Shown here: positions 1 to 60,061 of the stretch, piece by piece
Position numbering within the stretch: the stretch's first letter is position 1
How the letters are laid out: each line of letters begins with the position of its first letter
DNA from: Minisyncoccia bacterium
GTDB lineage: Bacteria; Patescibacteriota; Minisyncoccia; Phycocordibacterales; GWA1-40-21
Direction of reading: 5' to 3'
Assembly: GCA_049695975.1 (NCBI GenBank)
Contig: JBAVTE010000024.1
Location: forward strand, 1 to 63,402
Length of the DNA stretch: 63,402 nucleotides
Notes under the pieces: model-generated
What the model was told of the DNA's origin: nothing
The model's input: the letters and a program-made list of their open reading frames with translations, nothing else
Database searches by the model: none
Translations under genes and position numbers: made by a program

Positions 1-330
1 ACGGCGAAGCAAAACCAAAAATTTCCTTTCCATTTCTTTTTCCGCTTCGCGGTGGAGGGGTGGGGGGAGGAGACGCGAGAAAAATGCAAGGAAATTTTTT
101 GGTTTTTGCACACGCGAGTCCGCGAGCGTGTCCGAGGCGCATTGGTTCGCATCACCACGCAATCGGAGCGTACGAGGCAGTTTCAAGTCACCACGCGCTC
201 CGCGCGTGCGAAGTGGGTTCGCGCAAAGGTTAATACATCACCGCCAGTTGGGAAATGTGGTAAGGATGGTCCTTGCTATTTGTGTTATTCTATTTGTTTT
301 CGATCCATGCATTGATGAGTTCAAGAAGCA
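1..330. other. G+C-rich non-coding block. Its left edge is a truncated copy of the GAGCGAMGGCGAA repeat family.
   Basis: Composition is visibly much more G+C-rich than the rest of the window. The window starts with ACGGCGAAGC, the 3' part of the motif seen at 26616, 41586 and 59911(rc). Bases 9-26 (GCAAAACCAAAAATTTCC) pair with 90-109 (GGAAATTTTTTGGTTTTTGC). The only ORFs here are overlapping Arg-rich shadows. Confidence 0.4.
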
Positions 331-356
331 TTTTTTGATTACCATCTTGATACAAG

Positions 357-365
357 TGATATAAT
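357..365 (+). promoter_or_regulatory. Extended -10 element TGATATAAT, 6 nt upstream of the GTG at 372 (leaderless arrangement)
   Basis: TGATATAAT at 357-365, a possible -35 TTGATT at 335-340, and the start codon 6 nt downstream. Confidence 0.55.
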
Positions 366-371
366 ATTCAA

Positions 372-890
372 GTGACCAGGAAAAAAGAAATAAAGGTAAA
401 TAATAAAATGCAGACTGGTTATAAATATAATCTGACTGCTAGAGAAGGTAAGGATTTTGATCCACGCTTCAAGCCAGCCCTCACCCCAAAGCAAATGCTA
501 ACTCTGGGTGTATTTGGCGGGCGTTATTTGCGTGATTGCCTGTCTGAATATCCAGTGAGTTGGTTTGTTAAAGCAAAGTTTCATCCGGAAGGCTTGCCGG
601 GACATGATAAGAAATTGAATTATTTTGGTGTGGATGCTTCACAGCCACTTCTGGTCTGGCAGAAAAAAAGTTGGATAAATCCTCAAGATCCTCGCGGTTG
701 GTTTGAATGGTATTGCCGATATTTTCTTGGTCGTCGAACTGCTGATGATGACAGGCAGATAAAACGCTTCCTGGCTATGTGCCGTCATGTCAGCCAGCTT
801 AAAAAGAACTGCCGTCCTGGTGATATTTTTTGCCGTCCCCGCCAACGCCAAGCTCTCCTTCACTGGGCTTATGATAGCCGCAAGATTTGA
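372..890 (+). CDS. Conserved hypothetical protein with a W/R-rich core (DPRGWFEWYCRYFLGRR). Its 3' end is the repeat unit of the downstream cassette array.
   Basis: 172-aa ORF, visibly G+C-richer than its neighbours. The GTG start sits 6 nt after the extended -10. I cannot assign a named family from memory. An alternative ATG is at 408. Confidence 0.7.
   Translation: MTRKKEIKVNNKMQTGYKYNLTAREGKDFDPRFKPALTPKQMLTLGVFGGRYLRDCLSEYPVSWFVKAKFHPEGLPGHDKKLNYFGVDASQPLLVWQKKSWINPQDPRGWFEWYCRYFLGRRTADDDRQIKRFLAMCRHVSQLKKNCRPGDIFCRPRQRQALLHWAYDSRKI
820..890 (+). repeat. R1: intact reference copy of the cassette-boundary repeat (codons GDIFCRPRQRQALLHWAYDSRKI*)
   Basis: Direct alignment with 2099-2169, 2856-2925 and 4002-4064. 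Confidence 0.9.
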
Positions 891-977
891 TTTAAAAAGC
901 TAAAACGGCGTGAATTTGGTCAAAAAGTGACCCAAATTCACGCTATACCTAGCCGTCAACGTCGTATGTTGACGGGT

Positions 978-1002
978 GATTATTTTGTCTGAAAGAATGG
1001 TG
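978..1002 (+). repeat. M motif (GATTATTTTGTCTGAAAGAATGG), second half of the boundary repeat. Here it is separated from R1 by an 87-88-bp insert.
   Basis: The same motif directly abuts the stop codon in the copy at 4063-4087. It recurs at 4846-4872 and, truncated, at 5926-5952. Confidence 0.8.
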
Positions 1003-1017
1003 GCTGACCCCATTTTC

Positions 1018-1959
1018 CTAAATATTTTTTAGATACTCCTGTGCTTTTTCTAATACAACATCGCGATTCCCATTATTATCAGGTATTACAGCGATTGGTA
1101 TATCTGGTTCTATCCCAACACCTTCTAAAGACTGTCCATCATTTCTGTACATTCTCCATGTGGATACTCTCAAGGTAAATTCTTTGTCTCCCAAATGTAA
1201 ACTGAAAGCTTTTGGGTTACCAGATCCACCGCCAGTTGTTTGTCCAATTGTTATAGCTTTTCCAGTATCTTTTAACATCAAAATAAACATTTCATTCGAG
1301 CTTAGACATTTTGAGTCAGTTAGGATTACTACTTTTTTGTCCAAATATGTTTCGCCAGGTTCAATATTAAATGCTTCTTCGACTAATTCTGTTGAATCTG
1401 ATTTTTTACGTAAAACAGTACAAAATTGTATTTTTTTATCTATAAAGTGTCTAGCAAGACTTTCTGCCAAATTACTATTTCCTCCACCATTCTCTCTGAC
1501 ATCAATAATAATACTCTCACTTTCTGTGAGTTTGTTGAGTTCTTCCTCGACTAGCTCTGCTACATTTTTATCATCAACTTTAACATGATTACTCCAGCTC
1601 AATATTTTTAAATATCCAATATTGTTGGACAACATCATACTTTCTACTGGTTTTTGTTTTCTTTCTGGTCCTTTCTCACTATCAGATTTAATTTTTGGTA
1701 GATTTTCTTTTAAATCAGCGTGACTATTTTTTAGTGTAGAAATAATTTGTTGAATCTTTTTTACAAGTTCATTAGTATTAGGGGTGTTTTCATCATCTTC
1801 TAATAATGAATCAAATTTTCTTAAAAAAACTTCTCTTTCTTCATCTGATAAAAAAGGAAAAGTATCGCCTATATCATTTTTGATGGTGTTTATAAAATTA
1901 AGATTTTCTGCACTCTTAATATTTTCTTGTTTTACTGATTCTTGCTCAATTTTTTCCAT
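1018..1959 (-). CDS. S41-family (C-terminal processing / tail-specific protease-like) serine peptidase, with no obvious signal peptide
   Basis: IIDVRENGGGNS and TDSKCLSSNEMF...GQTTGGGSGNP motifs resemble the peptidase S41 core. The start is taken at the ATG at 1959, which lies 6 nt after TGTTATAAT on the minus strand. Confidence 0.65.
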   Translation of the reverse strand: MEKIEQESVKQENIKSAENLNFINTIKNDIGDTFPFLSDEEREVFLRKFDSLLEDDENTPNTNELVKKIQQIISTLKNSHADLKENLPKIKSDSEKGPERKQKPVESMMLSNNIGYLKILSWSNHVKVDDKNVAELVEEELNKLTESESIIIDVRENGGGNSNLAESLARHFIDKKIQFCTVLRKKSDSTELVEEAFNIEPGETYLDKKVVILTDSKCLSSNEMFILMLKDTGKAITIGQTTGGGSGNPKAFSLHLGDKEFTLRVSTWRMYRNDGQSLEGVGIEPDIPIAVIPDNNGNRDVVLEKAQEYLKNI

Positions 1960-1965
1960 ATAAAT

Positions 1966-1974
1966 ATTATAACA
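1966..1974 (-). promoter_or_regulatory. Extended -10 TGTTATAAT (minus strand), 6 nt upstream of the ATG at 1959
   Basis: The reverse complement of 1966-1974 reads TGTTATAAT, followed by ATTTAT and then ATG. Confidence 0.55.
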
Positions 1975-2098
1975 TGTCCAAAAGATAATATTAGTAAAAA
2001 TGGAAATGGGACTAATAGAGACAGGTCGTAGCAAAGTGACGACCCGTCTTTTCTTTTCAGCGGCAACTATTCTTTATGCAAGACCTAAAGAATTTTTA

Positions 2099-2169
2099 GT
2101 GATATTTTTTGCCGTCCACGAGAGCGCCAAGCTCTTCTCCACTGGGCTTATGATACTCGGAAGATTTGA
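2099..2169 (+). repeat. R2: second copy of the gene-tail repeat (reads DIFCRPRERQALLHWAYDTRKI* in the ancestral frame)
   Basis: Seven codons differ from R1. Five changes are synonymous and two are conservative (Q>E, S>T). Confidence 0.9.
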
Positions 2170-2194
2170 TTGTATTTTGTTTATATAGTTCGCA

Positions 2195-2203
2195 TGATAT
2201 AAT
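2195..2203 (+). promoter_or_regulatory. Extended -10 TGATATAAT, 6 nt upstream of the GTG at 2210
   Basis: Same nonamer and same spacing as at 357-365. Confidence 0.55.
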
Positions 2204-2209
2204 TTCGAC

Positions 2210-2698
2210 GTGAATAAAATAAATATCTATATTGATGGTAATAACTTATACCGATCAGCCAAAGAACTGGGTTTTGAAATTGATTATAAAAAGTTTAGGG
2301 GCTGGCTTCGTCAGAAATATAATCCGGCCATCGTTTACTTATTTATTGGTCTAGTACCAGAGAGGGTAAAATTTTACGAACATCTACAAAGTTGTGGTTA
2401 TATTTTGGTTTTTAAACAAACCGTGTCTGTTGGAGAAAAAGTAAAAGGTAACTGTGATGCCGAATTAGTATTAAAAGCTACTTCAGATTTTTATGAAAAA
2501 TCTTTTTCTTCTTGTGTTTTAATTACTGGTGATGGAGATTTTGGTTGCTTGGTAGAATTTTTAAAAGAAAAGAAATCTATGAGCCAGATTATTGCTCCAG
2601 ATAAAAAGAAATGTTCTTTTTTACTCAGAAATAAAAATACGGAGATTACTTTTTTGAACGAACATTATCATAAATTTTCAACCAAGATTAAGCCCTAA
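2210..2698 (+). CDS. NYN-domain (LabA/PIN-like) putative ribonuclease
   Basis: N-terminal INIYIDGNNLY and C-terminal ITGDGDFGCLV motifs are typical of NYN/LabA-like domains. Confidence 0.65.
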   Translation: MNKINIYIDGNNLYRSAKELGFEIDYKKFRGWLRQKYNPAIVYLFIGLVPERVKFYEHLQSCGYILVFKQTVSVGEKVKGNCDAELVLKATSDFYEKSFSSCVLITGDGDFGCLVEFLKEKKSMSQIIAPDKKKCSFLLRNKNTEITFLNEHYHKFSTKIKP

Positions 2699-2855
2699 AA
2701 GAAAAAGCCCCCAATGCAGACGAATCTGCATCAGGGTCTCCTTCATAGTGATGCAGAGATTATAACATAGTTTATTGAATTTATGCAATAGGTTCAAATC
2801 TATTGAAAATCAGACAAATTAACCTTTATAAAATAAGGTTAATTTGTCACCGCGC

Positions 2856-2925
2856 TGATATTTTCTGACGTCCACGAGAGCGTCAAGCTCTCCTTCACTG
2901 GGCTTATGATGCTCGGAAGATTTGA
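2856..2925 (+). repeat. R3: third copy of the gene-tail repeat (DIF*RPRERQALLHWAYDARKI*), with Cys TGC changed to TGA
   Basis: Alignment with R1 and R2. A 13-bp perfect hairpin at 2813-2847 lies just upstream. Confidence 0.9.
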
Positions 2926-2972
2926 TGATGGAGCATGGAGGGTGGCTTTTGTTTGGTGAAAAGGAAGTGGTG

Positions 2973-2981
2973 TGGTAAAGT
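2973..2981 (+). promoter_or_regulatory. Extended -10-like TGGTAAAGT, 6 nt upstream of the ATG at 2988
   Basis: Same geometry as the other cassette genes. Confidence 0.45.
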
Positions 2982-2987
2982 TTAAAT

Positions 2988-3971
2988 ATGGAAAATGAAG
3001 AATTATACCGAGCAACCAGTGAAGCCATTGATTCAGAACCACTGAAGGGTCTAGGCTTAAAATTGATTGGAATTGGAGCTGAAAAAATTGTATTTGAAAC
3101 TCCTGGCAGTAAAAGAAAGATTATAAAAGTTAGTATTGATGAAGTTATGTTTGCGTTAGCCAAAATATTAGGGCTTGTACCAAAAGATCAAGAGCGTTAC
3201 TACTCACTTTCATCCATAATCGCTGAACATAAAATTATTGAAGAGGACCTTAAAGAGGTTTTTGGAACAGAACATCTATTAAGAAATGGTGTTTTTAAAG
3301 CAAAAATACCGCTGCCTAAAAATGTTGTTATCGAACTATTTAAAAATAGTCGCATGGGTCAAATTGTCACTAACATGCTAGATAATAGGGAAGACGATGC
3401 CACTTTTGAAGTTGAGGTATTAGTTGAAACTCAAACCAAAGCAGAAGAATTAAGTGATCCGGAAAAATATAAAACAAGAGATTTTAGTACAGATCTGATT
3501 ATTAGCGATGAATTTCGTGGTGCTAAAGATATTCCCCAGGCGCTAGTTTTGGCTGAGCAGATGATAAACGAACGATTCCTTGATAATTTTGATGAAGACC
3601 TTAAGGATGTAAAATATATTGAAATTATTAGAGAAATTTTAACTAAAATTATTCAGTTTACAAAACGTACAGGACAAATGCTTGATATCTTTGGTCCAAA
3701 CAATATTACGATTTTTACAAAAGAAGACGGTTCTTTAGATTATCATTTACCAGATGTGATCCTCCCTGGGACACAAAGCCGTTGGTTTATAAATATAAAA
3801 GATGATCCGGAATATAATTTGCTAAGACATTATTATGTTTTCTATTACTCCATAAAAAGTTTGGGCGATAAACTTGGACTTGCAGATAATCTTGAACCGG
3901 ATGACCTTGTTTATTTTAAAGGTGCTGGCATTCCTACAAGTGGGCAGTTTCCAGATTCTACTGAGAGATAA
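2988..3971 (+). CDS. Atypical protein-kinase-like fold protein (orphan)
   Basis: GIGAEKIVFETPGSKRKIIKV looks like a Gly-rich loop followed by the VAIK lysine. LDIFGPNNITIF...LDYHLPDV looks like a D..N catalytic loop followed by a metal-binding Asp. Confidence 0.45.
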   Translation: MENEELYRATSEAIDSEPLKGLGLKLIGIGAEKIVFETPGSKRKIIKVSIDEVMFALAKILGLVPKDQERYYSLSSIIAEHKIIEEDLKEVFGTEHLLRNGVFKAKIPLPKNVVIELFKNSRMGQIVTNMLDNREDDATFEVEVLVETQTKAEELSDPEKYKTRDFSTDLIISDEFRGAKDIPQALVLAEQMINERFLDNFDEDLKDVKYIEIIREILTKIIQFTKRTGQMLDIFGPNNITIFTKEDGSLDYHLPDVILPGTQSRWFINIKDDPEYNLLRHYYVFYYSIKSLGDKLGLADNLEPDDLVYFKGAGIPTSGQFPDSTER

Positions 3972-4001
3972 GAATATATCAAATCAATCAAGGTCTCACC
4001 T

Positions 4002-4087
4002 TGATACTTTTTCCGTGAGCGCCAAGCTCTTCTCCACTGGGCTTATGATAGCCGTAAGATTTGATTATTTTGTCTGAAAGAATGGGG
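4002..4087 (+). repeat. R4+M: fourth copy (FFRERQALLHWAYDSRKI*), lacking the CRP codons, directly followed by the M motif
   Basis: Alignment with R1-R3. The stop TGA at 4062-4064 overlaps the start of GATTATTTTGTCTGAAAGAATGGGG. Confidence 0.9.
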
Positions 4088-4111
4088 ATAAACCTGTTTT
4101 AAAAAATAACA

Positions 4112-4120
4112 TGGTACAAT
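4112..4120 (+). promoter_or_regulatory. Extended -10 TGGTACAAT, 6 nt upstream of the ATG at 4127
   Basis: TGGTACAAT, then ATAATT, then ATG. Confidence 0.55.
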
Positions 4121-4126
4121 ATAATT

Positions 4127-4819
4127 ATGGGTATAAAGAAAAAAATTATGAACATTATATTAATAATTATCGGGGTTGTATTGGTTGGATGGTTTCTCTA
4201 TAGCTGGCTTTCGGTCCTTAATATTGAAGAGCCAAAGTATAAAATTGTAAGTGAGGCAAGTGGCTATGAGATACGAGAATATACATCTTACATTGTCGCT
4301 GAAACTACTGTTAGCAGTGCAGAGAACAGAGACGATGCGGTGAGAATAGGCTTTCCTATAATCGCCGGCTATATCTTTGGCGACAATACAAAAAAAGACA
4401 AGATTGCCATGACTGCACCGGTTAATACCGAAGAGAGTACTTCAGAGAAGATCGCCATGACGGCGCCAGTGAATACAGAGAAAATAGCGATGACCGTGCC
4501 GGTAAATACCCAGGAAGAAGCAGGTAGTGGCGCATACAAGATTTCCTTTGTTATGCCAAGTAAATACACACTTGAGACTTTGCCCGAGCCAAATGATAAG
4601 CGGGTAGTATTGCGAGAAGTGCCGGCGCGCAAGCTCGCGGTGCGAAGGTTTAGTTGGACGAATAGTGAATCTGCTTTTAAAAAACACGAGGCAGAACTTT
4701 TGGAAGCACTTAGGCGTGATGATGTTCTGACCGTTGGTGTTGTGAATGTGGCGCGCTACAACACGCCGTGGACAATACCGTTTATGCTTCGCAATGAAGT
4801 GCAGATAGAGGTAAAGTAG
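4127..4819 (+). CDS. SOUL/HEBP-family heme-binding-like protein with an N-terminal TM anchor
   Basis: EEPKYKIV..YEIREY, and the IAMTAPV motif present three times (KIAMTAPVNTE x3). The 3' half is visibly G+C-rich. Confidence 0.7.
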   Translation: MGIKKKIMNIILIIIGVVLVGWFLYSWLSVLNIEEPKYKIVSEASGYEIREYTSYIVAETTVSSAENRDDAVRIGFPIIAGYIFGDNTKKDKIAMTAPVNTEESTSEKIAMTAPVNTEKIAMTVPVNTQEEAGSGAYKISFVMPSKYTLETLPEPNDKRVVLREVPARKLAVRRFSWTNSESAFKKHEAELLEALRRDDVLTVGVVNVARYNTPWTIPFMLRNEVQIEVK

Positions 4820-4827
4820 TTAATAAT

Positions 4828-4872
4828 TTGATACCTGGGAGATTTGATTGTTTTTGTCTGAAAGAATGGGGG
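4828..4872 (+). repeat. R5: internally deleted boundary repeat (TTGATACC..GGGAGATTTGATTGTTTTTGTCTGAAAGAATGGGGG)
   Basis: It keeps the TTGATAC left end seen in R4, the GATTTGA stop region and the M motif. Confidence 0.75.
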
Positions 4873-4917
4873 AGGAATCAATTTTTTTATAGCTTTTCCT
4901 GTATTTAGAAGAATATA

Positions 4918-5838
4918 TTATTTATTGTCATGGTGTGCATTCAAATTTTCTATATGTTGAGAAGGAGAAATATTTAATGTCTGACACATGTATGATAATT
5001 TTCCTATAATTAGGTGAAGTTTTTCTTCAGATATTTTATTTTGATTAAACTTTTGTATACTTTTAATTAATTCTCTAGGGTGAATAATATTTTCTATAAT
5101 AGGTGTTTTAAGTTCACAAGAATCCATAAAGACGACAATACTTTCAAAACTATCTTTATTTACGAAAGGTATTAAATCTTGCAAAGCAATAATATGCGAA
5201 TAATTTTGTCTAATCGGGTTTTGAAATTGAAATTTTTTCTCTCCACCTGGTAATGACTGGGTCCAGTTTTCTTTATCTTTACTACCAAAAATCCATCCCT
5301 TATAATCCTTACTCTCGATAACAAAAATACCAAATTTTGATACCACCAAGTGGTCTATCTGTGACGAACCATTAAGAGTTGAAGGAATTGTGAGATTGTT
5401 AAATATAAAATAATCTTTATAACTCAACCCCTCCGAAAGAATATGCGCTACTTCTTGTTCACCAGCAGTAAGTCCTTCCATATAACATTTACATCCGTGT
5501 TTTTCACTATTTATTTCAGCAATCTGTTCCTTAGTAATGTTTGGATTGTTAAGTCCTACGGCCGTCGAATTATTAGATTTTTTGTATCTTCTAAAGGTAA
5601 AAACAATAATTACAATAGCTATTGCTAATATAAATAATAACCCCGGATTTATCTTTGATGAAATGAGTAAAATAATATAATAGCTACCTAAAAGTATAAA
5701 AAACCATTTCCAAAAATTAAAAGAATTATTATAAGAACCGTAAGATTTATGATGGTAGTAATAATTTGGTTTACTGTAATTACGAAAATAGTAAGGTGAA
5801 TAATAACGACGTCTTCGGTAATTATGATAATAACTCAT
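4918..5838 (-). CDS. NERD-domain (nuclease-related) protein with a Tyr/Arg/Asn-rich N-terminus and two TM helices
   Basis: QIDHLVVSKFGIFVIESKDYKGWIFG matches the NERD core. The N-terminal 45 aa are about one third Tyr. Confidence 0.65.
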   Translation of the reverse strand: MSYYHNYRRRRYYSPYYFRNYSKPNYYYHHKSYGSYNNSFNFWKWFFILLGSYYIILLISSKINPGLLFILAIAIVIIVFTFRRYKKSNNSTAVGLNNPNITKEQIAEINSEKHGCKCYMEGLTAGEQEVAHILSEGLSYKDYFIFNNLTIPSTLNGSSQIDHLVVSKFGIFVIESKDYKGWIFGSKDKENWTQSLPGGEKKFQFQNPIRQNYSHIIALQDLIPFVNKDSFESIVVFMDSCELKTPIIENIIHPRELIKSIQKFNQNKISEEKLHLIIGKLSYMCQTLNISPSQHIENLNAHHDNK

Positions 5839-5844
5839 CTTGAA

Positions 5845-5853
5845 ATCTTACCA
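5845..5853 (-). promoter_or_regulatory. Extended -10 TGGTAAGAT (minus strand), 6 nt upstream of the ATG at 5838
   Basis: The reverse complement of 5845-5853 reads TGGTAAGAT, followed by TTCAAG and then ATG. Confidence 0.5.
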
Positions 5854-5925
5854 TACTTTTTGACTGATAACAATTTTAAAGATTCGGTTGCATCTTTAAA
5901 ATTAATTATAGATAAAATATGTCCC

Positions 5926-5952
5926 TGATACCTTTTTCTAAAGAATGGGGCA
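5926..5952 (+). repeat. R6: most degraded boundary repeat (TGATACCTTTTTCTAAAGAATGGGG)
   Basis: It retains the TGATAC left end and the AAAGAATGGGG right end of R4 and R5. Confidence 0.6.
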
Positions 5953-6002
5953 GGAGGCTGTTTTTTCTCTACGCAAGTGGGCTATAAATATGGAGTATTT
6001 TG

Positions 6003-6011
6003 TGCTAAGAT
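6003..6011 (+). promoter_or_regulatory. Extended -10 TGCTAAGAT, 6 nt upstream of the ATG at 6018
   Basis: TGCTAAGAT, then TTGTTT, then ATG. Confidence 0.5.
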
Positions 6012-6017
6012 TTGTTT

Positions 6018-7094
6018 ATGAAAAAGGTAGAAAAGAAATCATTAAATAGCAACCTACATAAGGCAAATAAGGAGAAGAACGATGAGTTTTATACTCAACT
6101 TGTTGATATTGAAAAAGAATTAAAGCATTACAAGGAACAATTTCGTGAAAAGGTAGTTTATTGTAATTGTGATGACCCTTTTGAAAGTAATTTCTTTAAA
6201 TACTTTGCCTCAAATTTTAACGCTCTGGGTTTAAAGAGACTTATTGCGACAAGTTACAAACCATCACCAATTGCTAATACTCAACTTGGTTTATTTGGTG
6301 ACGATAAGTCTTTAAAACAAAATAAAGGCAGACCAAAAACAAACGCTAATAAATTCATTATCAATGAAGTTAAAGATATTGATGGTGATGGAGCTTTTGA
6401 TTTGCGGGATATTGCTAAACAACTCAAAGCGAATAAAAATAATGAATGGTCGCCAATGGAGGATGATGGGGACTTTAGAAGCCCAGAAAGTATAGAATTA
6501 CTTAAACAAGCGGATATTGTGGTGACAAATCCACCTTTCTCATTGTTTAGAGAATATGTTGCTCAGCTGGTTGAGTACAATAAAAAGTTTTTAATTTTAG
6601 GTGATCAAAATGCAGTAACTTATAAAGAAACTTTTGGCTTCATTAAAGAAAATAAACTATGGCATGGCTATGATAATGGCGGTACAAAATGGTTTCAGGT
6701 TCCTAATGATTATAATATTGAGACTGAATCAAGGATAAAAATTGAAAATGGTACAAAGTTTTTTAGTATGGGTAGAATTGTTTGGTATACAAATTTGGAT
6801 ACCACAAAACGTAATGAAAAAATAGTTTTGTATAAAAAATACACACCAAAAGAATTTCCTAAATATGATAACTATGACGTTATAAATGTTGATAAAGTAG
6901 CTGATATTCCAATGGACTATAAGGGTGTGATGGGTGTACCAATTACTTTTGTTGATAAATACAATCCTACACAGTTTGAAATATTGGGTATTGCTAATTC
7001 TGCAAGATGGATTGGTTATGAATGCTTTACTTTACTTAAGAGTGTAAAAATATATAATCGAATTTTAATTAAAAACGTAAAGCCACAAAAGTAA
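6018..7094 (+). CDS. Amino-DNA methyltransferase (N6-adenine type, EcoRI-methylase-like)
   Basis: DIVVTNPPFSLF is motif IV (NPPF). The overall length and layout resemble stand-alone adenine MTases. Confidence 0.7.
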   Translation: MKKVEKKSLNSNLHKANKEKNDEFYTQLVDIEKELKHYKEQFREKVVYCNCDDPFESNFFKYFASNFNALGLKRLIATSYKPSPIANTQLGLFGDDKSLKQNKGRPKTNANKFIINEVKDIDGDGAFDLRDIAKQLKANKNNEWSPMEDDGDFRSPESIELLKQADIVVTNPPFSLFREYVAQLVEYNKKFLILGDQNAVTYKETFGFIKENKLWHGYDNGGTKWFQVPNDYNIETESRIKIENGTKFFSMGRIVWYTNLDTTKRNEKIVLYKKYTPKEFPKYDNYDVINVDKVADIPMDYKGVMGVPITFVDKYNPTQFEILGIANSARWIGYECFTLLKSVKIYNRILIKNVKPQK

Positions 7095-7098
7095 TTTT

Positions 7099-7617
7099 AT
7101 GACCTTCGATCAATATTTAAACATTGGTAGTATACTTGTTTCTGTTGTAATTGCATGCATAACCTTTCATATTTCGAAAAGTTTGTCTGCGAAAGATAAA
7201 TATAATCACGAAATAGAAATAAGTAAAATGCTAAGAGATATTCCTATTTATAGTGAAGTGATTTTAGCAGATGTTTCAAGGTATAAACCATCAAGGACAG
7301 ATGAATACAATAAAACATATTACAAGCAAAGAGCGGAATTATACACTGTAATTCCTGAATTCGGGGCGCAGTTTATTTTAATACCCGAAACAATAGATAA
7401 AATTCCGGTAGGTGTGATTCCGTTTGAATGGATAGAATACATTAGAGACTATGATAGCGAGGATAATAAGTACATAATCGTTTGCAGATTTAAAGGTATA
7501 AAGTATTATAAAGGTTTCAAATCACCATTCAGGGAAATAAATTCAATTTATGAAAATAAAAATTATAAAGAAGGCGATCCAAAATTTTTAAAATATACAG
7601 GTATAAAAAATAATTAA
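7099..7617 (+). CDS. Hypothetical protein with a single N-terminal TM helix
   Basis: ORF tightly packed between the MTase (4-nt gap) and the DUF262-HNH gene (1-nt gap). Confidence 0.5.
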   Translation: MTFDQYLNIGSILVSVVIACITFHISKSLSAKDKYNHEIEISKMLRDIPIYSEVILADVSRYKPSRTDEYNKTYYKQRAELYTVIPEFGAQFILIPETIDKIPVGVIPFEWIEYIRDYDSEDNKYIIVCRFKGIKYYKGFKSPFREINSIYENKNYKEGDPKFLKYTGIKNN

Positions 7618-7618
7618 T

Positions 7619-8725
7619 ATGAAAATAGATTTACATAAAATAAAGGTAGTAGATGTTGTAAAAAATTACAAAGACAGTGCTGAAGAAGGGGTTACTGCTT
7701 TTGGTGGAAAATTAGATATTCGTCCAAAATATCAAAGAGAGTTTGTTTATAAATCAGAACAACGTAACGCGGTAATAAATACGGTTCAAAATCAATTTCC
7801 GCTTAATGTAATGTATTGGATAGAAAATAGTGCTGGTAATTATGAATTACTCGACGGCCAGCAACGCACATTAAGTATTTGTCAGTATTTCAATGGTGAT
7901 TATTCAATAAATGATCGATATTTTCATAATCTAACCAAAGAGGAAAAAGATCAGATACTTAATTATGAGTTGATGATTTATTTTTGTGATGGAACTGATA
8001 AAGAGCGTATTAAATGGTTTGAGATTATAAATACCGCTGGTGAAAAACTGACTGCTCAAGAGTTGCTTAACGCTGTTTATACTGGTCCATGGCTTTCGGA
8101 CGCAAAACTCAAATTTAGCAAGTCAAACTGCGCGGCTTATCTCTTGGCAAATGACGGAGGTCAGTTGGTTATTGGTTCACCAATCAGACAGGAATATCTG
8201 GAGACAGCACTTTCTTGGATAAATAATGGGAGTATTGCTGACTATATGGCAAAACATCAACATGATAAAAATGCGAATGAATTGTGGCAGTATTTTCAGG
8301 AGACCATCTCCTGGGTGCGAAAGACTTTTCCGGAATATCGAAGAGAAATGGTGAATGTAAATTGGGGCGAACTTTACAACGAATTTAAAGACAAGAAGCT
8401 GAACACTGGAAAATTAGAGACCGAAATTAAGGAGTTAATGCAAGATGAAGATGTAACCAAAAAATCTGGTATTTATCCATATGTTTTAACTAGGAATGAA
8501 AAATATTTAAATATTCGTGCTTTTACAGATAAACAGAAGAGGGAGGTATACGAAAAACAAAAAGGTATTTGTCCGCATTGTAAAGGTGAAAATAAGAAAA
8601 AGAAATGGGAAATTGATGAAATGGAAGTCGACCATGTAACACCTTGGCATGAAGGTGGAAAAACCGTCTCAAAAAATTGCCAGATGTTGTGTAAGGAAGA
8701 TAATCGGACTAAATCTGGGAAATAA
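7619..8725 (+). CDS. DUF262 (GmrSD N-domain, ParB-like) fused to an HNH endonuclease
   Basis: LLDGQQRT motif near the N-terminus. The C-terminus has CPHCKG...VDHVTPWHEGGKTVSKNCQMLCKEDNRTK, an HNH motif. Confidence 0.75.
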   Translation: MKIDLHKIKVVDVVKNYKDSAEEGVTAFGGKLDIRPKYQREFVYKSEQRNAVINTVQNQFPLNVMYWIENSAGNYELLDGQQRTLSICQYFNGDYSINDRYFHNLTKEEKDQILNYELMIYFCDGTDKERIKWFEIINTAGEKLTAQELLNAVYTGPWLSDAKLKFSKSNCAAYLLANDGGQLVIGSPIRQEYLETALSWINNGSIADYMAKHQHDKNANELWQYFQETISWVRKTFPEYRREMVNVNWGELYNEFKDKKLNTGKLETEIKELMQDEDVTKKSGIYPYVLTRNEKYLNIRAFTDKQKREVYEKQKGICPHCKGENKKKKWEIDEMEVDHVTPWHEGGKTVSKNCQMLCKEDNRTKSGK

Positions 8726-9673: not shown

Positions 9674-9702
9674 TTGACTTTTTTACATGGTTTGCATATA
9701 CT
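9674..9702 (+). promoter_or_regulatory. Sigma70-type promoter (TTGACT-17 nt-TATACT), with the ATG at 9710 7 nt downstream (leaderless)
   Basis: -35 at 9674-9679 and -10 at 9697-9702. Confidence 0.6.
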
Positions 9703-9709
9703 TAGTCGT

Positions 9710-10408
9710 ATGAGTACGATTAAGTATATGCAAAAAATAAAAGAGTTGCGAATTAAAAAAGGTTTTAGTCAAGAGCAAATTGCTCAAGTAATAGGGGTTT
9801 CAAGACCAACATATACGTCTATTGAAGCTGGAAAACAAAAATTAGATTTAGATGAAGCGCAAAAACTTGCTACATTTTTTAGTATTGATGTTGACGCTCT
9901 TTTGACTGGTACTATTCCTGATATTGATAAGTACAAGCACATGATACTAACTTTTTTGAGATTGAATATTTCTAAGGATGGTAAAATACCTAAAACTAAA
10001 CTTGCTAAACTGTTATATCTTACTGATTTTGCTTGGTTTTATGATCACTCCGAAAGTATGAGTGGCATGCCGTATAGGAAAATTGCTTTTGGTCCAGTAC
10101 CAGATAATTTTTTCCGCGCTTTGGATGAGTTAGAGGAATCTGGGAAAATAGTTATTGATCATGAAAATAATAATGGAAAGGAGATGTTTTTGATTAGTGA
10201 ATCTAAAAGTAATATAAACGAAAAGATAATAACAATCCTACCTGAGGAGAAGACTTTAATGGAAAGGATTGCTAAGAAATGGAAGGATAAGAAGACTAGT
10301 GAGATAGTTAATTTTACGCACAATCAATTGCCATACACCCTTTGTCGACAGGATGAGATTATTCCATATGAACTTATAACACAAGAAGACCCTGAAATGG
10401 TGTTCTAA
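9710..10408 (+). CDS. XRE-family HTH fused to a DUF4065/SocA-like (Panacea) antitoxin domain
   Basis: IKELRIKKGFSQEQIAQVIGVSRPTYTSIEAG is an XRE HTH. KTKLAKLLYLTDFAWF and the downstream region resemble the Panacea domain. The start was moved to the ATG after the promoter. Confidence 0.65.
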   Translation: MSTIKYMQKIKELRIKKGFSQEQIAQVIGVSRPTYTSIEAGKQKLDLDEAQKLATFFSIDVDALLTGTIPDIDKYKHMILTFLRLNISKDGKIPKTKLAKLLYLTDFAWFYDHSESMSGMPYRKIAFGPVPDNFFRALDELEESGKIVIDHENNNGKEMFLISESKSNINEKIITILPEEKTLMERIAKKWKDKKTSEIVNFTHNQLPYTLCRQDEIIPYELITQEDPEMVF

Positions 10409-10413
10409 AAATT

Positions 10414-10806
10414 ATGCAGGGTAATTGTTCAGTTAAGATTGAAGAATTTGCAAAGCGGTATTATATAAAATGCTTTGAGAGAAAACACAAGTCTAATTGG
10501 GATGTCACCTTAAGGGCTATTATTGCTGGATTAGAGCGTATTGATAATCTCTTGCTTACAGATAAAGCAGAAACTATTTGTGATAATAATGGAATCCTAA
10601 TCATTAAGACTAAATTTAGGATTTCTGGCACGAAGGAATCAGCGAAGACTTCTGGTAATAGGTGTATTGTTGCTTGGTGTAAAGAAAAACAAACCGTGTC
10701 TGTATTATTGGTTTATGGCAAAACTGATTTGAGTGGACACAATGAAACATCGGAGTGGAAAAGAATAATTAAAGATAATTATATAGCGTATAAGAATATT
10801 TTGTAA
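10414..10806 (+). CDS. Putative toxin partner (RelE/ParE-like pattern KFRISGTKESAKTSGNRCIV...VLLVYGK)
   Basis: A 5-nt gap (10409-10413) separates it from the antitoxin stop. Its size and the K..SGNR.I...LLVY.K pattern recall RelE-superfamily toxins. Confidence 0.4.
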   Translation: MQGNCSVKIEEFAKRYYIKCFERKHKSNWDVTLRAIIAGLERIDNLLLTDKAETICDNNGILIIKTKFRISGTKESAKTSGNRCIVAWCKEKQTVSVLLVYGKTDLSGHNETSEWKRIIKDNYIAYKNIL

Positions 10807-10879
10807 TAAAATAAAAAAAGTCAGTCACCATTAATTTACAAAAAACGAAACTTCTTTAATAACATTTAAATTAAATAAC

Positions 10880-10999
10880 ATGTCCGAATTTTATAAATCA
10901 AACAGAACAAGAAATTTGTATGATCCTGAGAGTGAGGTGCCATTTAAACTTTCTCGTTCACCGATAGAGCTGAATAGGCGGGGAAAGTGGATTTTATAA
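10880..10999 (+). pseudogene. Relic of the N-terminus of a PD-(D/E)XK (Cas4/Dna2-like) nuclease gene
   Basis: The 39 codons MSEFYKSNRTRNLYDPESEVPFKLSRSPIELNRRGKWIL* include NLYDP..PFKLSRS.IE, the usual start of that family. The Cys-rich continuation is missing. Confidence 0.4.
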
Positions 11000-11078
11000 A
11001 CAATTTACATTACACTTGCAAATATAAACAAAATTGCACAATTCGTTTACATTGCTATTATTAATATAAACAAAATAT

Positions 11079-11519
11079 ATGAAAATTGAAGTGTCGAAAG
11101 AACAATTAAAGGAAATGATTCTTTCAGCGATGTTTTATTCGTGGGTTCGTGGCGGTTTGGCTGACCAAAAAGGGGAAGATTTTAACCAATATGAAAAATT
11201 AGAAAATTTTTTGCTTAAAATCGCCGACGAGAACGGTTTTTCGGATCTAGCGGAGAAATTTCACAATACTTTGGTACCAACAGACGAATTATCGGAATTA
11301 CTGGAGAATACAATGGAAGAACATGACGAAGATGTTTTTTGGCATGAATTAACCACTGCATTAGGCAAGCGTGATTTTTATCGCACTGTCACAAAAGAGG
11401 AGAAGAAAGAGATGGAAGAAAAGAATTGGCTTCCGGATAGAATTCATACCATATATAAAAAATATGAAGAAGAGTTTGAGAAACATGGAATTGATAGGTT
11501 GGATATAAAAGAAAAATAA
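11079..11519 (+). CDS. Acidic hypothetical protein
   Basis: 146-aa ORF with no family recognised. Confidence 0.45.
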   Translation: MKIEVSKEQLKEMILSAMFYSWVRGGLADQKGEDFNQYEKLENFLLKIADENGFSDLAEKFHNTLVPTDELSELLENTMEEHDEDVFWHELTTALGKRDFYRTVTKEEKKEMEEKNWLPDRIHTIYKKYEEEFEKHGIDRLDIKEK

Positions 11520-17123: not shown

Positions 17124-18212
17124 ATGAATCTTGATTTTTTAGTGAATTTTTTTGGACCACCTGAATTTCTAAAAATGCCTTTTGTGGCTTTTGATATTAG
17201 CAACCATTTTGTTCGGTTCGTTGAATTGAAAAAAAGGGGAGGATCTTTTGTTTTGGGAAAGGTTGGAGAAAAGAAAATACCGGAAGGAATATTTTCTAGT
17301 GGTGATATATTAAAAAAAACAGAACTCATTTCTATATTATCTGATATCAAAAAAGAAAACGGCTTCAATTTGGTTAAAGTATCTATACCAGAGGAAAAGT
17401 CCTATATTTTTATTACTGAAGTACCAAAAGTAGAACATAAAGAAATTCGTCAGATGATTGAATTTTGCTTAGAAGAAAATGTTCCCCTGAAGCTAGAAGA
17501 AGCTGTTTTTGAATATTCAATTATAGAGCAATCCGAGACATCCAATTTGTTAAAAATAAATGTATCTGTGATTCAAAAACAAACAGTAGATTCTTTTTTA
17601 GATGTGTTTCAATCGGCAGGATTTCTTCCTCTTTCTTTAAAAACAGAATCGAAGGCGGTAGTAAGGTGTATTTTACCTCCTGAAATAATGGGTAATGTCT
17701 TGATTATTAATATTAAAGACACATCTACGATTCTTTCGATGACAATAAATGGTGTAGTATGGTTTACATCTACTATATCTATTGGAAAAAATTTTGTAAT
17801 AGATATATTGAAAAAAAATTCTATTACAAATCAACAATCCATATACAAAATATCTGAAGATATTTTTTCTTCCGATGAAGCGAAAAATGCTGAAGTTTTC
17901 GATTCTCTGATGAATGTTTTTTCAATTTTAAGAGATGATGTGAAAAAGTTTATAGAATTTTGGGAGAACAAATGTGGAAAAATTTCTCAACCTATTTGTA
18001 AAATAGACAAAGTAGTTCTTTGTGGGAGTGTTTCAGCTATACCTGGTTTTGCAAGATATATGTCCTCAAGTTTAGGTTTACAGGTCGAAGTTGCAAATGT
18101 ATGGGTTAATATTTTTAATATCGAAAATATTGTTCCTTCAGTGAAATTTGTCGATTCTTTGGATTTCGGGCCAGTTTTAGGGGTTGCTTTGGGAGATATA
18201 GATAAAATATAA
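17124..18212 (+). CDS. pilM: Type IV pilus assembly protein PilM (actin-like ATPase fold)
   Basis: Size, layout and the downstream PilN-like gene. Confidence 0.6.
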   Translation: MNLDFLVNFFGPPEFLKMPFVAFDISNHFVRFVELKKRGGSFVLGKVGEKKIPEGIFSSGDILKKTELISILSDIKKENGFNLVKVSIPEEKSYIFITEVPKVEHKEIRQMIEFCLEENVPLKLEEAVFEYSIIEQSETSNLLKINVSVIQKQTVDSFLDVFQSAGFLPLSLKTESKAVVRCILPPEIMGNVLIINIKDTSTILSMTINGVVWFTSTISIGKNFVIDILKKNSITNQQSIYKISEDIFSSDEAKNAEVFDSLMNVFSILRDDVKKFIEFWENKCGKISQPICKIDKVVLCGSVSAIPGFARYMSSSLGLQVEVANVWVNIFNIENIVPSVKFVDSLDFGPVLGVALGDIDKI

Positions 18213-35177: not shown

Positions 35178-35213
35178 CTGCCTCAAGCGTTTTCGCTTGA
35201 GGCAGTTTTTTTT
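35178..35213. terminator. Bidirectional hairpin CTGCCTCAAGCG-TTTT-CGCTTGAGGCAG followed by T8
   Basis: 12-bp perfect stem lying between convergent genes. Confidence 0.65.
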
Positions 35214-36664
35214 CTTATAAACAAAAAAATAACTCCCAAAAATATATAAATCATTAAAACAGGAAATTTTACAAAAGAATTCGTTGGTATAGCAGATATT
35301 GGCAAAGAAGAAAAGAAATTTACCACAAGCAGAACGAAGGAAAGCAAAATCCAAGACAAAAACATAAATGGCCACGCAAGAATTTTTGAAATAAATCCAA
35401 AGGCAACAAGAAGAAACCCAAAAAACATTATTGAAGGAACTAGAGGTAGGACTAAAAGATTGGTAAAAAGTGAAACCACAGAGACCGTATCCATTTTAAC
35501 GATGAGAAGAGGTAGGACAAAGATTTGCGTAGCAATAGTGGATGCAACAATTTCTCGAAGACCAAACTTGTCTGTAATTTTAAGTTTACTTACCACTATG
35601 GGAGAAAGATAGACCAAAGCCAAAGTTGCTAAAAATGAAAGTTGGAATGAAACATCAAAAACAAGTATTTTAGGATTTAAAAATATCATTATAAAGCCAG
35701 CAAAAAACAAAGCCCTTCCGACACTATAGTCCCTGTGAATCAACCTACCGAAAATAAGGATTAGAGCCATAAAACATGCTCGAATGACAGTAGATGAACC
35801 TCCAGCCATTATAGAAAATAACACTACACCAATAGCAGAAAATCCCAGAGAAAAGTTATTTGGTAAAAATGAAAAAACTTTTAGTACAGACTCCGCAACT
35901 ATTGTAATGTTATATCCAGATAAAACCACGATATGTGAAAGGCCGGCTTTACGAAAATTATCATTAAGTTTATCTGAAAACATTTTTGATCCAAGAAGCA
36001 TTCCAATAAGAAGTGATGATTGAGGATCGACTAATTGATTTTTAATTTCTGTAATTGAAGAATTTTTTACTTTTAGTAAAAAATTCTTCAATTTATTTCC
36101 GTTTCCTGAAGAAACTATTTTTGTTTTAACAAAATTTGCTATGAGATAGATGCCGTCTTTTGCAAGATAGTCTTTGTAATCAGTCAGGTCACCAATCAAA
36201 GTATCTGTACTTTCAATTTGTCCGCTTATTAAAACTTTGTCACCATAAAATACTCTCGGGTATGGATCAGTTTGCACCATTATTTTTTCTTCTCTGCATT
36301 TTTCTTTACAATACTCCAATGTCAAAACGAATTTCTGATATTGACCACTTGTATCTGGTTCGCTTAAAACAATTCCTTCTACTGTCTCTTTTTTGCCAAT
36401 TATATTGCTATAGTCTAATTTTGAAGAGATCTCACTACATTCATATCGTATGACCCCAATGCTAAAAGATAAAATCAAAACAAAAAACCCAATAATATGG
36501 ATCTTAGAATATGGATCTTTATAAATTTTTAGAAATATGAGAGAAAGAAGCGAAATTAAAAAAAGAAAAATTCCGAATGAAAAACCAGGACTGGAAAAGG
36601 AACATAAAAAAGTTGATAAAAGAAAGCCAAAAATAAAAAGGAAAAAATATTTATCAAATCGCAC
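35183..36664 (-). CDS. comEC: ComEC/Rec2 DNA-uptake channel, membrane (competence) domain only
   Basis: N-terminal OB-like region plus about 10 TM helices, with GLSHIVVLSGYNI and ILIFGRLIHR motifs. There is no MBL domain. Confidence 0.7.
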   Translation of the reverse strand: MRFDKYFFLFIFGFLLSTFLCSFSSPGFSFGIFLFLISLLSLIFLKIYKDPYSKIHIIGFFVLILSFSIGVIRYECSEISSKLDYSNIIGKKETVEGIVLSEPDTSGQYQKFVLTLEYCKEKCREEKIMVQTDPYPRVFYGDKVLISGQIESTDTLIGDLTDYKDYLAKDGIYLIANFVKTKIVSSGNGNKLKNFLLKVKNSSITEIKNQLVDPQSSLLIGMLLGSKMFSDKLNDNFRKAGLSHIVVLSGYNITIVAESVLKVFSFLPNNFSLGFSAIGVVLFSIMAGGSSTVIRACFMALILIFGRLIHRDYSVGRALFFAGFIMIFLNPKILVFDVSFQLSFLATLALVYLSPIVVSKLKITDKFGLREIVASTIATQIFVLPLLIVKMDTVSVVSLFTNLLVLPLVPSIMFFGFLLVAFGFISKILAWPFMFLSWILLSFVLLVVNFFSSLPISAIPTNSFVKFPVLMIYIFLGVIFLFIRKKTASSENA

Positions 36665-58923: not shown

Positions 58924-59817
58924 CTATTGTAGATAACCTCTGTTATATCTCTTAAGAATTTTTAGTAAGTTCTCATTAATTTCCTCTCCTCCCAATTTAC
59001 TATTTTGTATTTCATTCATTAATTCGGAAATTTTTGCTTGTTTTTCTGCTTTTTCTGAATTTTCATTTTTAACAATTCTGACAATTTTTATAAATTCTGG
59101 AAATGTTAGGTCTTTATTATTTTTTGTTTTTTCAAGAGCGAGTATTAAATTTTCTATATTTAAATAAGTTAATCTCTTTGAATCACTATTTATTTGTAAT
59201 TTATTTTGGTTATTAAAAATAGTTAGAATTCTTATTAATATAGCAAGTCTATCAAATTTTATACTAAATATATTAGGTATAGATTCTATATACCCAATGA
59301 CTAATTTTTGAGTGTTTTCATTTAAATTATCGCTAAATAAATTAATACAATTTTTTATGTATTCAATTTTTCTCCCCATTGATTCTTCCGCATAGCCTAA
59401 AATTCGTGGCATTTTTTGAATCAATTCAATAGGATTCTCAAAACCTTGTCCTTTTAACCACTCTATTTTTTTACCCATAGATTCTTCCGCAAGGCCTAAA
59501 ATTGGTGGCATTTTTTGAATCAATTCAATAGGATTCTCAAAACCTTGTTCTTTCAACCATTCAATTTTTCTCCCCATTGATTCTTCCGCATAGCCTAAAA
59601 TTCGTGGCATTTTTTGAATCAATTCAATAGGATTCTCAAATCCAATTTTTTTTAATCCTTCTATTTTATTTAAAATAGAAGATTCATCTTTTGTAATACT
59701 TTCAGGAGAAAAACCTAATTTTTCTAATATAGAATATATTTCATCGGAATAACGCAAATCATCTACTGGCTTATCTGGATTAAATTTATCATTCATAAAT
59801 ATAATATTATCATACAA
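58924..59817 (-). CDS. mTERF-like helical repeat protein
   Basis: Three near-identical 33-aa units, GFENPIELIQKMPRILGYAEESMGRKIEWLKEQ, match the mTERF repeat logic (Gf....i.k.....P.iLgys.E..l..k.e.L). Confidence 0.55.
   Translation of the reverse strand: MYDNIIFMNDKFNPDKPVDDLRYSDEIYSILEKLGFSPESITKDESSILNKIEGLKKIGFENPIELIQKMPRILGYAEESMGRKIEWLKEQGFENPIELIQKMPPILGLAEESMGKKIEWLKGQGFENPIELIQKMPRILGYAEESMGRKIEYIKNCINLFSDNLNENTQKLVIGYIESIPNIFSIKFDRLAILIRILTIFNNQNKLQINSDSKRLTYLNIENLILALEKTKNNKDLTFPEFIKIVRIVKNENSEKAEKQAKISELMNEIQNSKLGGEEINENLLKILKRYNRGYLQ
59363..59641. repeat. Tandem 99-bp repeat (about 2.8 units) inside the mTERF-like gene
   Basis: GATTCTTCCGC recurs at 59381, 59480 and 59579. Units 1 and 3 are identical over about 80 nt. 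Confidence 0.9.
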
Positions 59818-60053: not shown

Positions 60054-60061
60054 TAATTTTG

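Follow-up and report, generated by a model that had tools for sequence, protein, structure and literature searches.

The 3′ end of a conserved gene with no assigned function is a lineage-specific hotspot of gene accretion in the Minisyncoccia bacterium contig JBAVTE010000024.1 (assembly GCA_049695975.1). The gene, here called X (open reading frame (ORF) 372-890), heads an array within the stretch of DNA that we analysed (63 kb; hereafter the window). The last 23 codons of X, about 70 nt, recur as direct repeats downstream of the gene, and exactly one gene lies in each of the five intervals between consecutive boundaries. Comparison with relatives indicates that the hotspot is real and recurrent and that its content turns over fast. 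As the mechanism we favor homology-driven accretion following DNA uptake, in which ordinary recombination would enlarge the array with no dedicated recombinase; we give this reading a probability of about 0.45.

The tail of gene X is repeated at the cargo boundaries

A repeat search of the window returned one 71-nt repeat family (821-891, 2100-2170, 2856-2926 and 3995-4065), the members of which have 75-92% identity to the reference copy at 2100-2170. A 27-nt core, CAAGCTCTYCTYCACTGGGCTTATGAT, occurs four times and was never found in 100 shuffled sequences; among the first four copies (R1 to R4) it differs at two synonymous sites only. Together with the single gene per interval, these results uphold the chief claim of a preliminary description of this DNA, that the last ~70 nt of ORF 372-890 are repeated around single genes, and its in-frame translations of R1 to R4 were exact. 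Two further copies that it had listed as deleted versions, R5 and R6, are indeed short remnants: the former retains the last 19 nt of the tail plus a downstream motif (M), and the latter is essentially M only. Tail copies other than that of X itself are called orphans below, and Gln type or Glu type refers to codon -15 of the tail. Apart from the cargo, the elements of the array are as follows.

372-890, plus strand: gene X, the head of the array (172 residues from the GTG at 372, 160 residues from the ATG at 408), conserved and without an assigned function
821-890, plus strand: R1, Gln type, the functional tail of X, which comprises codons DIFCRPRQRQALLHWAYDSRKI and the stop
892-980, plus strand: insert of ~89 nt lying between TTGAT and TATTTTG, with hairpins at 907-943 and 953-975 and ending in GTGAT
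981-1016, plus strand: M1, TATTTTGTCTGAAAGAATGG then TGGCTGACCCCATTTT, corresponding to the longer M-plus-terminator unit of relative L084 with an internal deletion
2100-2169, plus strand: R2, an intact-looking orphan, Glu type, the right 42 nt of which equal the functional tail of the L084 X gene
2170-2193, plus strand: degenerate start of M after R2 (TTGTATTTTGTTTATATAG...), recognized from alignments
2856-2925, plus strand: R3, an orphan, Glu type, with a TGC to TGA nonsense change in its left half
4002-4064, plus strand: R4, an orphan, Glu type, with a net loss of 7 nt in its left half
4063-4087, plus strand: M4, which adjoins the stop codon with no 89-nt insert between them (an empty site)
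4829-4872, plus strand: R5 and M5, the last 19 nt of the tail (TGATACCTGGGAGATTTGA, 4829-4847) followed by M
5926-5966, plus strand: R6/M6, TGATACC then TTTTTCTAAAGAATGGGGCAGGAGGCTGTTTTTT, the most decayed boundary

The M motif, TTTGTCTGAAAGAATGG, is exact at 984, 4069 and 4853, and a degenerate copy lies at about 5936-5952. It had been described as following the stop codon, which holds at R4 and R5 and fails in R1, where the two-hairpin insert intervenes. Its extent had also been underestimated. In relatives M is longer, extending into GGGGGAKGAGGCTGTTTTTTAAAAAAGSTYCCTGACMCCTTTT, and runs on into a terminator-like hairpin, AAAAAAGGTTCCTGACACCTTTTT. The end part of this continuation forms a small hairpin that is also found, reversed, in the unrelated contig L147, and thus the hairpin is a generic terminator module. 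The repeated unit is therefore best described as the X tail plus the X terminator region, about 100-250 nt.

The short boundaries have a simple origin. The pentamer TGAT(A/T) occurs three times in the tail (at Gly-Asp-Ile, at Tyr-Asp-Ser/Thr and at the stop codon); R5 is the unit minus the stretch between the first and second TGATA, and R6 is the unit minus the stretch up to the third TGAT(A/T). Given this fit, these internal deletions are most simply explained by slippage between the 5-mers. We had considered TGAT as a site-specific junction motif for all boundaries, a proposal mostly explained away once R5 and R6 are taken as deletions within the unit, as only one founding edge then remains.

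The ~89-nt insert is single-copy in the window. Its site is empty (TTGAT/TATTTTG, the slash marking the junction) at R4, at R5, after the X gene of L084 and in L087, whereas filled sites read TTGAT/insert...GTGAT/TATTTTG. The insert is also present in one L084 orphan (insert and hairpin positions at 125-220 of the minus strand and 4006-4060), and across copies its 3′ end is GTGAT or GCGAT. Hairpin 1 alone follows unrelated genes in L084 and in L140 (1496-1557), and the hairpin at 953-975 with its T-run was scored as terminator-like. Elements of the IS200/IS605 family have subterminal hairpins and insert 3′ of a fixed pentanucleotide without target duplication. By analogy, the insert, which doubles as the X terminator, looks like a miniature hairpin element of that style.

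Two trivial explanations of the repeats were rejected. An assembly artefact is at odds with tail copies that differ by 8-25% and with a Logan contig from another run that reproduces X, the S41 peptidase gene that follows it and the start of R2; X and the S41 gene are likewise present in Logan contig L082 of the same strain. A genome-wide repeat resembling repetitive extragenic palindromes was also dismissed, since the tail core, M and both hairpins are confined to the array within the 63 kb. No known RNA family was detected in positions 1-6100 (best match E = 0.5). The chromosome is AT-rich (~33% GC).

Orphan tails are hybrids

We compared the five long orphans, namely R2, R3 and R4 of the window plus o2 and o3 of L084, a relative found by scanning metagenomes with the X tail core. 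All functional tails examined have CAA or CAG as codon -15, which encodes Gln in 120 of the 120 X homologues tallied, whereas it is GAG (Glu) in all five long orphans, which come from two genomes. Disabling changes are confined to the left 27 nt of the orphans (the TGA codon in R3, the 7-nt loss in R4 and a 1-nt insertion in o3), and the left half of o2 carries Arg to Cys and Arg to His substitutions. Relative to the nearest functional allele, 14 of 81 left sites and 12 of 210 right sites are substituted (Fisher p = 0.005). The right 42 nt, by contrast, retain an open frame and resemble functional alleles: R2 equals the functional tail of L084 at 42 of 42 positions in this part, and the second copy in relative L087 ends AAG ATG TAG, as does the functional tail of L001.

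Given the shared GAG codon, the damage confined to the left and the match of the right halves to functional alleles, the orphan reads as a hybrid of a cassette-side, never-translated left half and a displaced functional right half. As the GAG codon is absent from functional tails, the left half seems never to have been part of a working gene, and the hybrid structure would put the crossover within the tail, on the right side of codon -15. The earlier idea that each copy was once a functional gene terminus thus survives for the right ~42 nt and not for the left 27 nt, where GAG in five of five long orphans and all nonsense and frameshift damage are found.

The left edge of all long orphans lies at exactly the same base in both genomes (xx/TGATAT). 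A crossover at this edge was rejected because it would give Glu in the functional gene and Gln in the orphans, the opposite of what is observed. In relative L081, a decayed remnant has an R4-type left end (CCTTGATACTTTTTCCGT of R4 equals the L081 remnant over 18 nt) but reads CAA (Gln) at the signature position; this hints at a crossover elsewhere, left of codon -15. The switch points, few in number, are therefore five of five right of codon -15 in the long orphans and apparently left of it in one decayed remnant.

Counting changes by codon position gave the predicted third-position bias, with 10 of 13 variable sites among R1-R3 in third positions (binomial p = 0.0016) and nine of 14 among the three full orphans. 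Variation that originated in coding copies, or was swapped with them, would show such a bias. At the nucleotide level X has an unusually conserved tail, even between phyla, which makes the tail a usable homology anchor.

Arrays and boundaries in relatives

Three or four arrays were available for comparison, and their boundaries recur with different cargo. In L084 the X gene is 92% identical to that of the window, and its array contains the two additional long orphans and five copies of the terminator hairpin, with hairpin 1 present twice and hairpin 2 plus M once. Seven genes lie between its tail copies and tail/terminator fragments: a 99-residue ORF, a gene for a 253-residue membrane protein, a Fic protein gene, a gene for a 338-residue protein, an S-adenosylmethionine (AdoMet)-decarboxylase-like gene, a 125-residue ORF and a 76-residue ORF. 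All are unlike the cargo of the window. Within the L084 array, moreover, 40 nt from the 3′ end of the membrane protein gene are duplicated with 100% identity (4056-4095 and 1712-1751, 2.3 kb apart). This is a second gene-tail scar, and hence tail scars are general in this region. The preliminary description had proposed that decay increases from left to right; this gradient is present in the window and not in L084.

L087 has a 5′-truncated X pseudogene (a remnant of at least 39 codons) adjoining an unrelated gene and followed by M, one small gene and another orphan. In L081 (X 86% identical) the decayed remnant lies ~100 nt after X, is preceded by a hairpin homologous to the one that overlaps the left end of R4 and is followed by a UvrD/PD-(D/E)XK gene. 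L143 has a copy, 88% identical, of the gene for a 327-residue, possibly kinase-like protein of the window array, with an R5-type remnant, GATAGCTGGGAGATTT, directly after its stop codon. The short orphan types hence recur beside different genes: the R4 type in the window and L081, and the R5 type after a gene of the SOUL family in the window and after the kinase-like gene in L143, the derived CTGGGAG of R5 being common to both. These findings agree with the expectation that the same boundary would flank different genes in related genomes. An orphan-free counterpart was also found. In L001 (X 89% identical) three small ORFs, different from the window genes, separate X from a methyltransferase-nuclease operon homologous to that beyond the window array.

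No second tail copy was detected in the ~140 fetched loci that carry more distant X genes, and the exceptions are all in the narrow clade of the window. When homologues of the kinase-like gene were used to look for further arrays, a single short contig proved to have an R5-type remnant, and the other contexts were those of an ordinary chromosome. The Glu-type pattern and the repeat were not found in viral contigs or in phage or plasmid collections. Two Logan contigs, L082 (ending at 1937) and L140 (ending at 2143), stop inside the X tail or R2. Logan assemblies use 31-mers. As R2 and R4 share 34 identical bases, arrays of this kind are probably often fragmented, and so under-reported, in metagenome assemblies.

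Gene X

More than 8000 X homologues were found, the best 120 listed being 64-86% identical, and X in the fetched loci of relatives has 34% to 92% identity. The hosts include members of the candidate phyla radiation (CPR), Planctomycetes, Rhizobiales (including plasmids), DPANN archaea, jumbo phages (among them pVa-21 and YerA41) and giant-virus bins, a range across which identity falls to about 29-62%. Conservation between bacterial phyla and DPANN archaea is unusually high (58-70%). X had no match in Pfam, NCBIfam, PHROGs, PADLOC or PDB sequences. Its AlphaFold2 (AF2) model (predicted local distance difference test (pLDDT) score of 79) had no PDB fold match, and the single BFVD fold match is unnamed; GenBank phages and plasmids annotate X as hypothetical. 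Conserved residues of X include Cys, His, Arg and Trp. We considered whether X could be a serine or tyrosine recombinase, but sequence and fold give no support.

X has no conserved neighbor: 78 Pfam families were found in 83 loci. Both flanks change even where copies of X are 86-92% identical, as if the gene itself were mobile. Among 83 first downstream neighbors the sole integrase is in the Woesearchaeota contig L052, where an ORF (10498-11325) encoding a XerC/D-like tyrosine recombinase (LRHSFA...GHADLSTTQIYT) overlaps the X stop codon; no second tail copy was found within 10 kb in L052.

Cargo genes and flanking DNA

The genes between the boundaries and those of the distal flank are listed below.

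1018-2034, minus strand: cargo 1, S41 peptidase (Pfam PF03572, E = 3e-30)
2194-2795, plus strand: cargo 2, the NYN unit, with a -10-like ATGATATAAT, the gene at 2210-2698 and a conserved 3′ hairpin at 2709-2736 (Pfam PF01936)
2988-3971, plus strand: cargo 3, a 327-residue protein of weakly kinase-like fold
3987-4005, plus strand: terminator-like hairpin of cargo 3, the 3′ arm and T-run of which overlap the left end of R4
4127-4819, plus strand: cargo 4, SOUL heme-binding family (Pfam PF04832, E = 2e-48)
4918-5838, minus strand: cargo 5, a NERD-domain protein (Pfam PF08378, E = 2e-30)
6012-8725, plus strand: distal flank, with an EcoRI-type methyltransferase (6012-7094), a 172-residue ORF (7099-7617) and a GmrSD_N plus HNH nuclease (7619-8725)

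Cargo is found in both orientations, two of the five genes being on the minus strand, and most units have their own terminator-like hairpin. Such hairpins are in excess (nine vs 3.1 expected), whereas promoter-like sites are not clearly above chance (30 vs 23). The label "kinase-like" given earlier to cargo 3 remains plausible on the basis of its AF2 model (pLDDT 89), the top Foldseek matches of which are mostly kinase folds at E ≥ 0.01; no Pfam or PDB sequence match was found for this protein.

The NYN (LabA-like) unit has 81-83% nucleotide identity to contigs L147-L150 over exactly 2194-2795 (about 7985-8590 in those contigs), the contexts there are unrelated to the window and have no tail repeats, and the edges of the homology (2194 and 2795) differ from the repeat edges. 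Close homologues number more than 1000; the 120 listed are 79-98% identical, and many are on ~1-kb contigs. The ~600-bp unit with its 3′ hairpin may be a mobile unit in its own right.

In the distal flank the methyltransferase is an adenine methyltransferase and the nuclease was called by PADLOC as a type II restriction enzyme (REase_II, E = 1.6e-127), and thus 6012-8725 is a compact restriction-modification unit. It is followed by a helix-turn-helix (HTH)/SocA-Panacea antitoxin-like gene (9674-10408). The remainder of the window is ordinary chromosome, with genes for ribosomal proteins, EF-G, EF-Tu, tRNAs, tmRNA, SmpB, ComEC and PilM. Its gene content, like the names borne by homologues of the cargo, points to a CPR lineage. 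A gene for an mTERF-domain protein (PF02536, E = 1e-14; 58924-59817, minus strand) adjoins the tmRNA gene (60059-60458) and smpB; the mTERF family is mainly eukaryotic and organellar. At the contig edge, positions 1-300 are a GC-rich non-coding stretch with a 33-nt direct repeat (152-184/188-220, period 36) and a 25-nt inverted repeat (11-35/82-106) and no Rfam match; the Logan contig of the same strain starts at position 215.

How the array may grow

Growth by homology-driven accretion is conveniently divided into four steps: (i) related DNA, already laid out as X, cargo and orphan, would be taken up by competence, (ii) a left crossover would occur in the conserved body of X, (iii) on the right the donor orphan would pair with the functional tail of the recipient and cross over inside the ~70 nt, right of codon -15, and (iv) X would gain a fresh functional tail with one cargo segment added beside it. 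Each event would leave a hybrid orphan, of which the left 27 nt would come from the donor orphan and the right ~42 nt plus M would be the displaced functional tail. Orphans would then decay, partly by TGAT(A/T) deletions that give the R5 and R6 forms. The enzyme would be the homologous recombination machinery of the cell itself, and occasional illegitimate joins would create new boundaries and bring in new cargo. We infer the staggered alignment, the role of transformation and a single founding duplication.

Several observations favor this recombination model. No match to recombinase or transposase families was found among the 59 proteins of the 63-kb window, and the repeats lack dyad symmetry and an attC-like fold (R1-R4 and the L084 unit, folded as single-stranded DNA on both strands, gave z of -0.07 to +1.7 relative to shuffles). 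This agrees with the preliminary description, which had seen no integrase, transposase or attC-like palindrome in the units. Older copies decay freely, core included. The L081 remnant suggests a different crossover point, the 40-nt duplicate in L084 shows that tail scars are general in the region, and the NYN cargo exists elsewhere with other edges and no repeats. Also in favor of the model are the Glu codon common to the long orphans, the restriction of damage to their left halves, the likeness of their right halves to functional alleles, the third-position bias, the short orphan types found beside different genes and the conserved X tail as an anchor. Finally, experiments have demonstrated natural competence in Saccharibacteria, a CPR group (PMC10633639), and the window encodes competence proteins.

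17124-18212: PilM, a DNA-uptake gene
35183-36664: ComEC (PF03772), with an adjacent gene for a metallo-beta-lactamase domain protein

Other observations weigh against the recombination model. The common orphan edge requires a single putative founder event, and so sharp an edge also fits a site-specific system. Seventy nt is short for RecA-type recombination, although the unit with M and terminator reaches 150-250 nt. The third-position bias is also seen in the never-translated left halves (six of nine sites), a pattern that the model fails to predict. Compared with L084 or L001 at 60-nt resolution, no recombinant mosaic is seen in X. Only three or four arrays stand behind the model, the window covers 63 kb of the genome, such that a recombinase may be encoded elsewhere, and the first arrival of wholly new cargo between tail and orphan is not explained.

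The sharp edge leads directly to the strongest alternative, a site-specific cassette system acting in trans, which we consider unlikely. Here a Xer-like or integrase-like recombinase encoded elsewhere would join a cassette-borne site (the Glu-type left half, core, tail end and M) to the X tail with crossover fixed inside the 27-nt core, and the units would resemble integron cassettes or integrative mobile elements exploiting Xer (IMEX) or cis-mobilizable elements (CIMEs). An edge identical in all long orphans of two genomes would then be expected, the hybrid structure would be the product of an attP x attB exchange with an internal crossover, and the ~1-kb single-gene units with entirely different cargo in relatives, the near-constant core of R1-R4 and the XerC/D-like gene overlapping the X stop codon in L052 all fit. 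The lack of recombinase matches, dyad symmetry and attC-like folds counts against such a system, as does the state of the older sites, which are not maintained (the core is mutated in o2 and o3 of L084 and deleted in R5 and R6). The L081 remnant argues against a fixed crossover, and the NYN cargo, so similar elsewhere without a repeat, has unit edges that differ from the repeat edges. Moreover, the Glu-type pattern and the repeat are missing from the phage and plasmid collections, and the arrays are limited to a narrow clade though X is everywhere.

A related proposal, that the units are fossils of full-size integrase-bearing elements, we judge improbable. Such elements would have inserted serially at the X 3′ end with replacement tails, and deletions would have left ~1-kb stubs between the old att sites. 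This follows the logic of tandem islands at ssrA and tRNA genes, in which some units lack integration genes and may be cis-mobilizable (PMC3146451, PMC5704250), and it accommodates both orphans at various stages of decay and the scars of other genes in L084. However, no integrase remnant was seen in the available arrays (window, L084, L087 and L081, the last two not fully screened), the content of each interval is not rubble but a single intact gene that usually has a terminator of its own, and among the ~140 X loci none has an integrase-bearing island with a second tail copy within 10 kb.

A dedicated CPR cassette-capture system, with the coding 3′ end of X as its attachment site and neither IntI nor attC hairpins, is a long shot; its recombinase would be an unrecognized protein encoded elsewhere or X itself. 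If it exists, the system would match the integron in function while using different components. The alternative raised in the preliminary description, tandem insertion or duplication of X-plus-cargo units followed by independent deletion of the 5′ parts of the extra X copies, seems very improbable in that independent deletions would not stop at the same base five times and would not leave a Glu codon shared by orphans and absent from all functional copies, even though the L087 pseudogene beside an unrelated gene and the changes on both sides of closely similar X copies speak for it.

Relation to known systems

Of the systems described so far, tandem islands inserted at the 3′ ends of ssrA or tRNA genes come closest. 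The strain-specific islands of Dehalococcoides are delimited by more than a dozen 20-bp repeats of the end of ssrA, and the crossover was located from a motif beside each repeat that mismatches ssrA; some of the units are devoid of integration genes, and for these cis-mobilization was proposed (PMC3146451; the concept is reviewed in PMC5704250). Like these islands, the X array involves successive insertions at the 3′ end of a single conserved gene, direct repeats of the gene end and strain-variable content. Here too the target gene is intact and has direct repeats of its own 3′ end at the unit boundaries, and the Glu-type left half plays the role of the ssrA-mismatching motif. Units without integration genes are another likeness, though in Dehalococcoides this is true of only some. 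The X locus differs in its target, the tail of a protein-coding gene, in its longer repeat (70-150 nt vs 20 nt) and in its units, which are single genes of ~1 kb; none of them has been seen with a recombinase (DsiB-like or other), and the crossover is about 24 nt or more inside the homologous block. No cognate integrase was found in the window or in the L084 cargo tested, and none was seen in the units of L087 and L081, which were not fully screened.

Accretion of cis-mobilizable elements with integrative and conjugative elements (ICEs) or integrative and mobilizable elements (IMEs) likewise involves att-like flanks without an integrase of their own and reconstitution of the 3′ end of a conserved gene (PMC5704250). 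Those elements are several kilobases long and depend on the integrase of a neighboring ICE or IME, whereas the X locus has no such partner. The units at X are putatively mobile. The preliminary description named no described system in which ~1-kb promoter-bearing cassettes recombine at the tail of a protein-coding gene; this overlooks tandem islands delimited by 3′-end copies of ssrA, tRNA or protein genes, as well as att-flanked elements that lack an integrase (PMC3146451, PMC5704250).

The label "integron-like" also fails the tests applied. The array resembles integrons in having a head gene, mostly single-gene units between repeats, the newest unit beside the head and cargo that varies among relatives. 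However, there is no IntI in the 63-kb window, the repeats are non-folding and are not imperfect palindromes (z ≥ -0.07 for an attC fold), the cargo genes face both ways and a terminator-like hairpin accompanies most units. These repeats come from coding sequence and decay quickly, and NYN is found elsewhere without them. Hence three of the four defining features tested fail, and only the array of single-gene units with variable cargo is present.

Homology-facilitated illegitimate recombination (PMC3240628) is similar in that no mobility gene is needed, a conserved flank is the anchor, competence genes are present and single genes are swapped at a fixed site. There, however, the resident block is replaced, whereas here the tail is duplicated and blocks accumulate; hence staggered pairing of an orphan with the functional tail is needed. 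In Neisseria, the "minimal mobile elements" are likewise small gene blocks exchanged through transformation with the help of flanking homology.

Implications

How accessory genes enter and leave the tiny genomes of CPR/Patescibacteria is, to our knowledge, poorly understood. At this locus the last 70 bases of X plus its terminator would act as portable homology beside which single genes stack and swap. The stacked genes include those encoding nucleases, restriction-modification proteins, a Fic protein and peptidases, and the content of the array is completely different in genomes with a 92% identical head gene. The GAG codon at an invariant Gln position is an orphan signature for which any metagenome can be searched. 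If a dedicated enzyme is involved, the array would represent a new cassette system. If ordinary recombination suffices, similar tail-repeat hotspots may be common but overlooked, and such hotspots fragment short-read assemblies.

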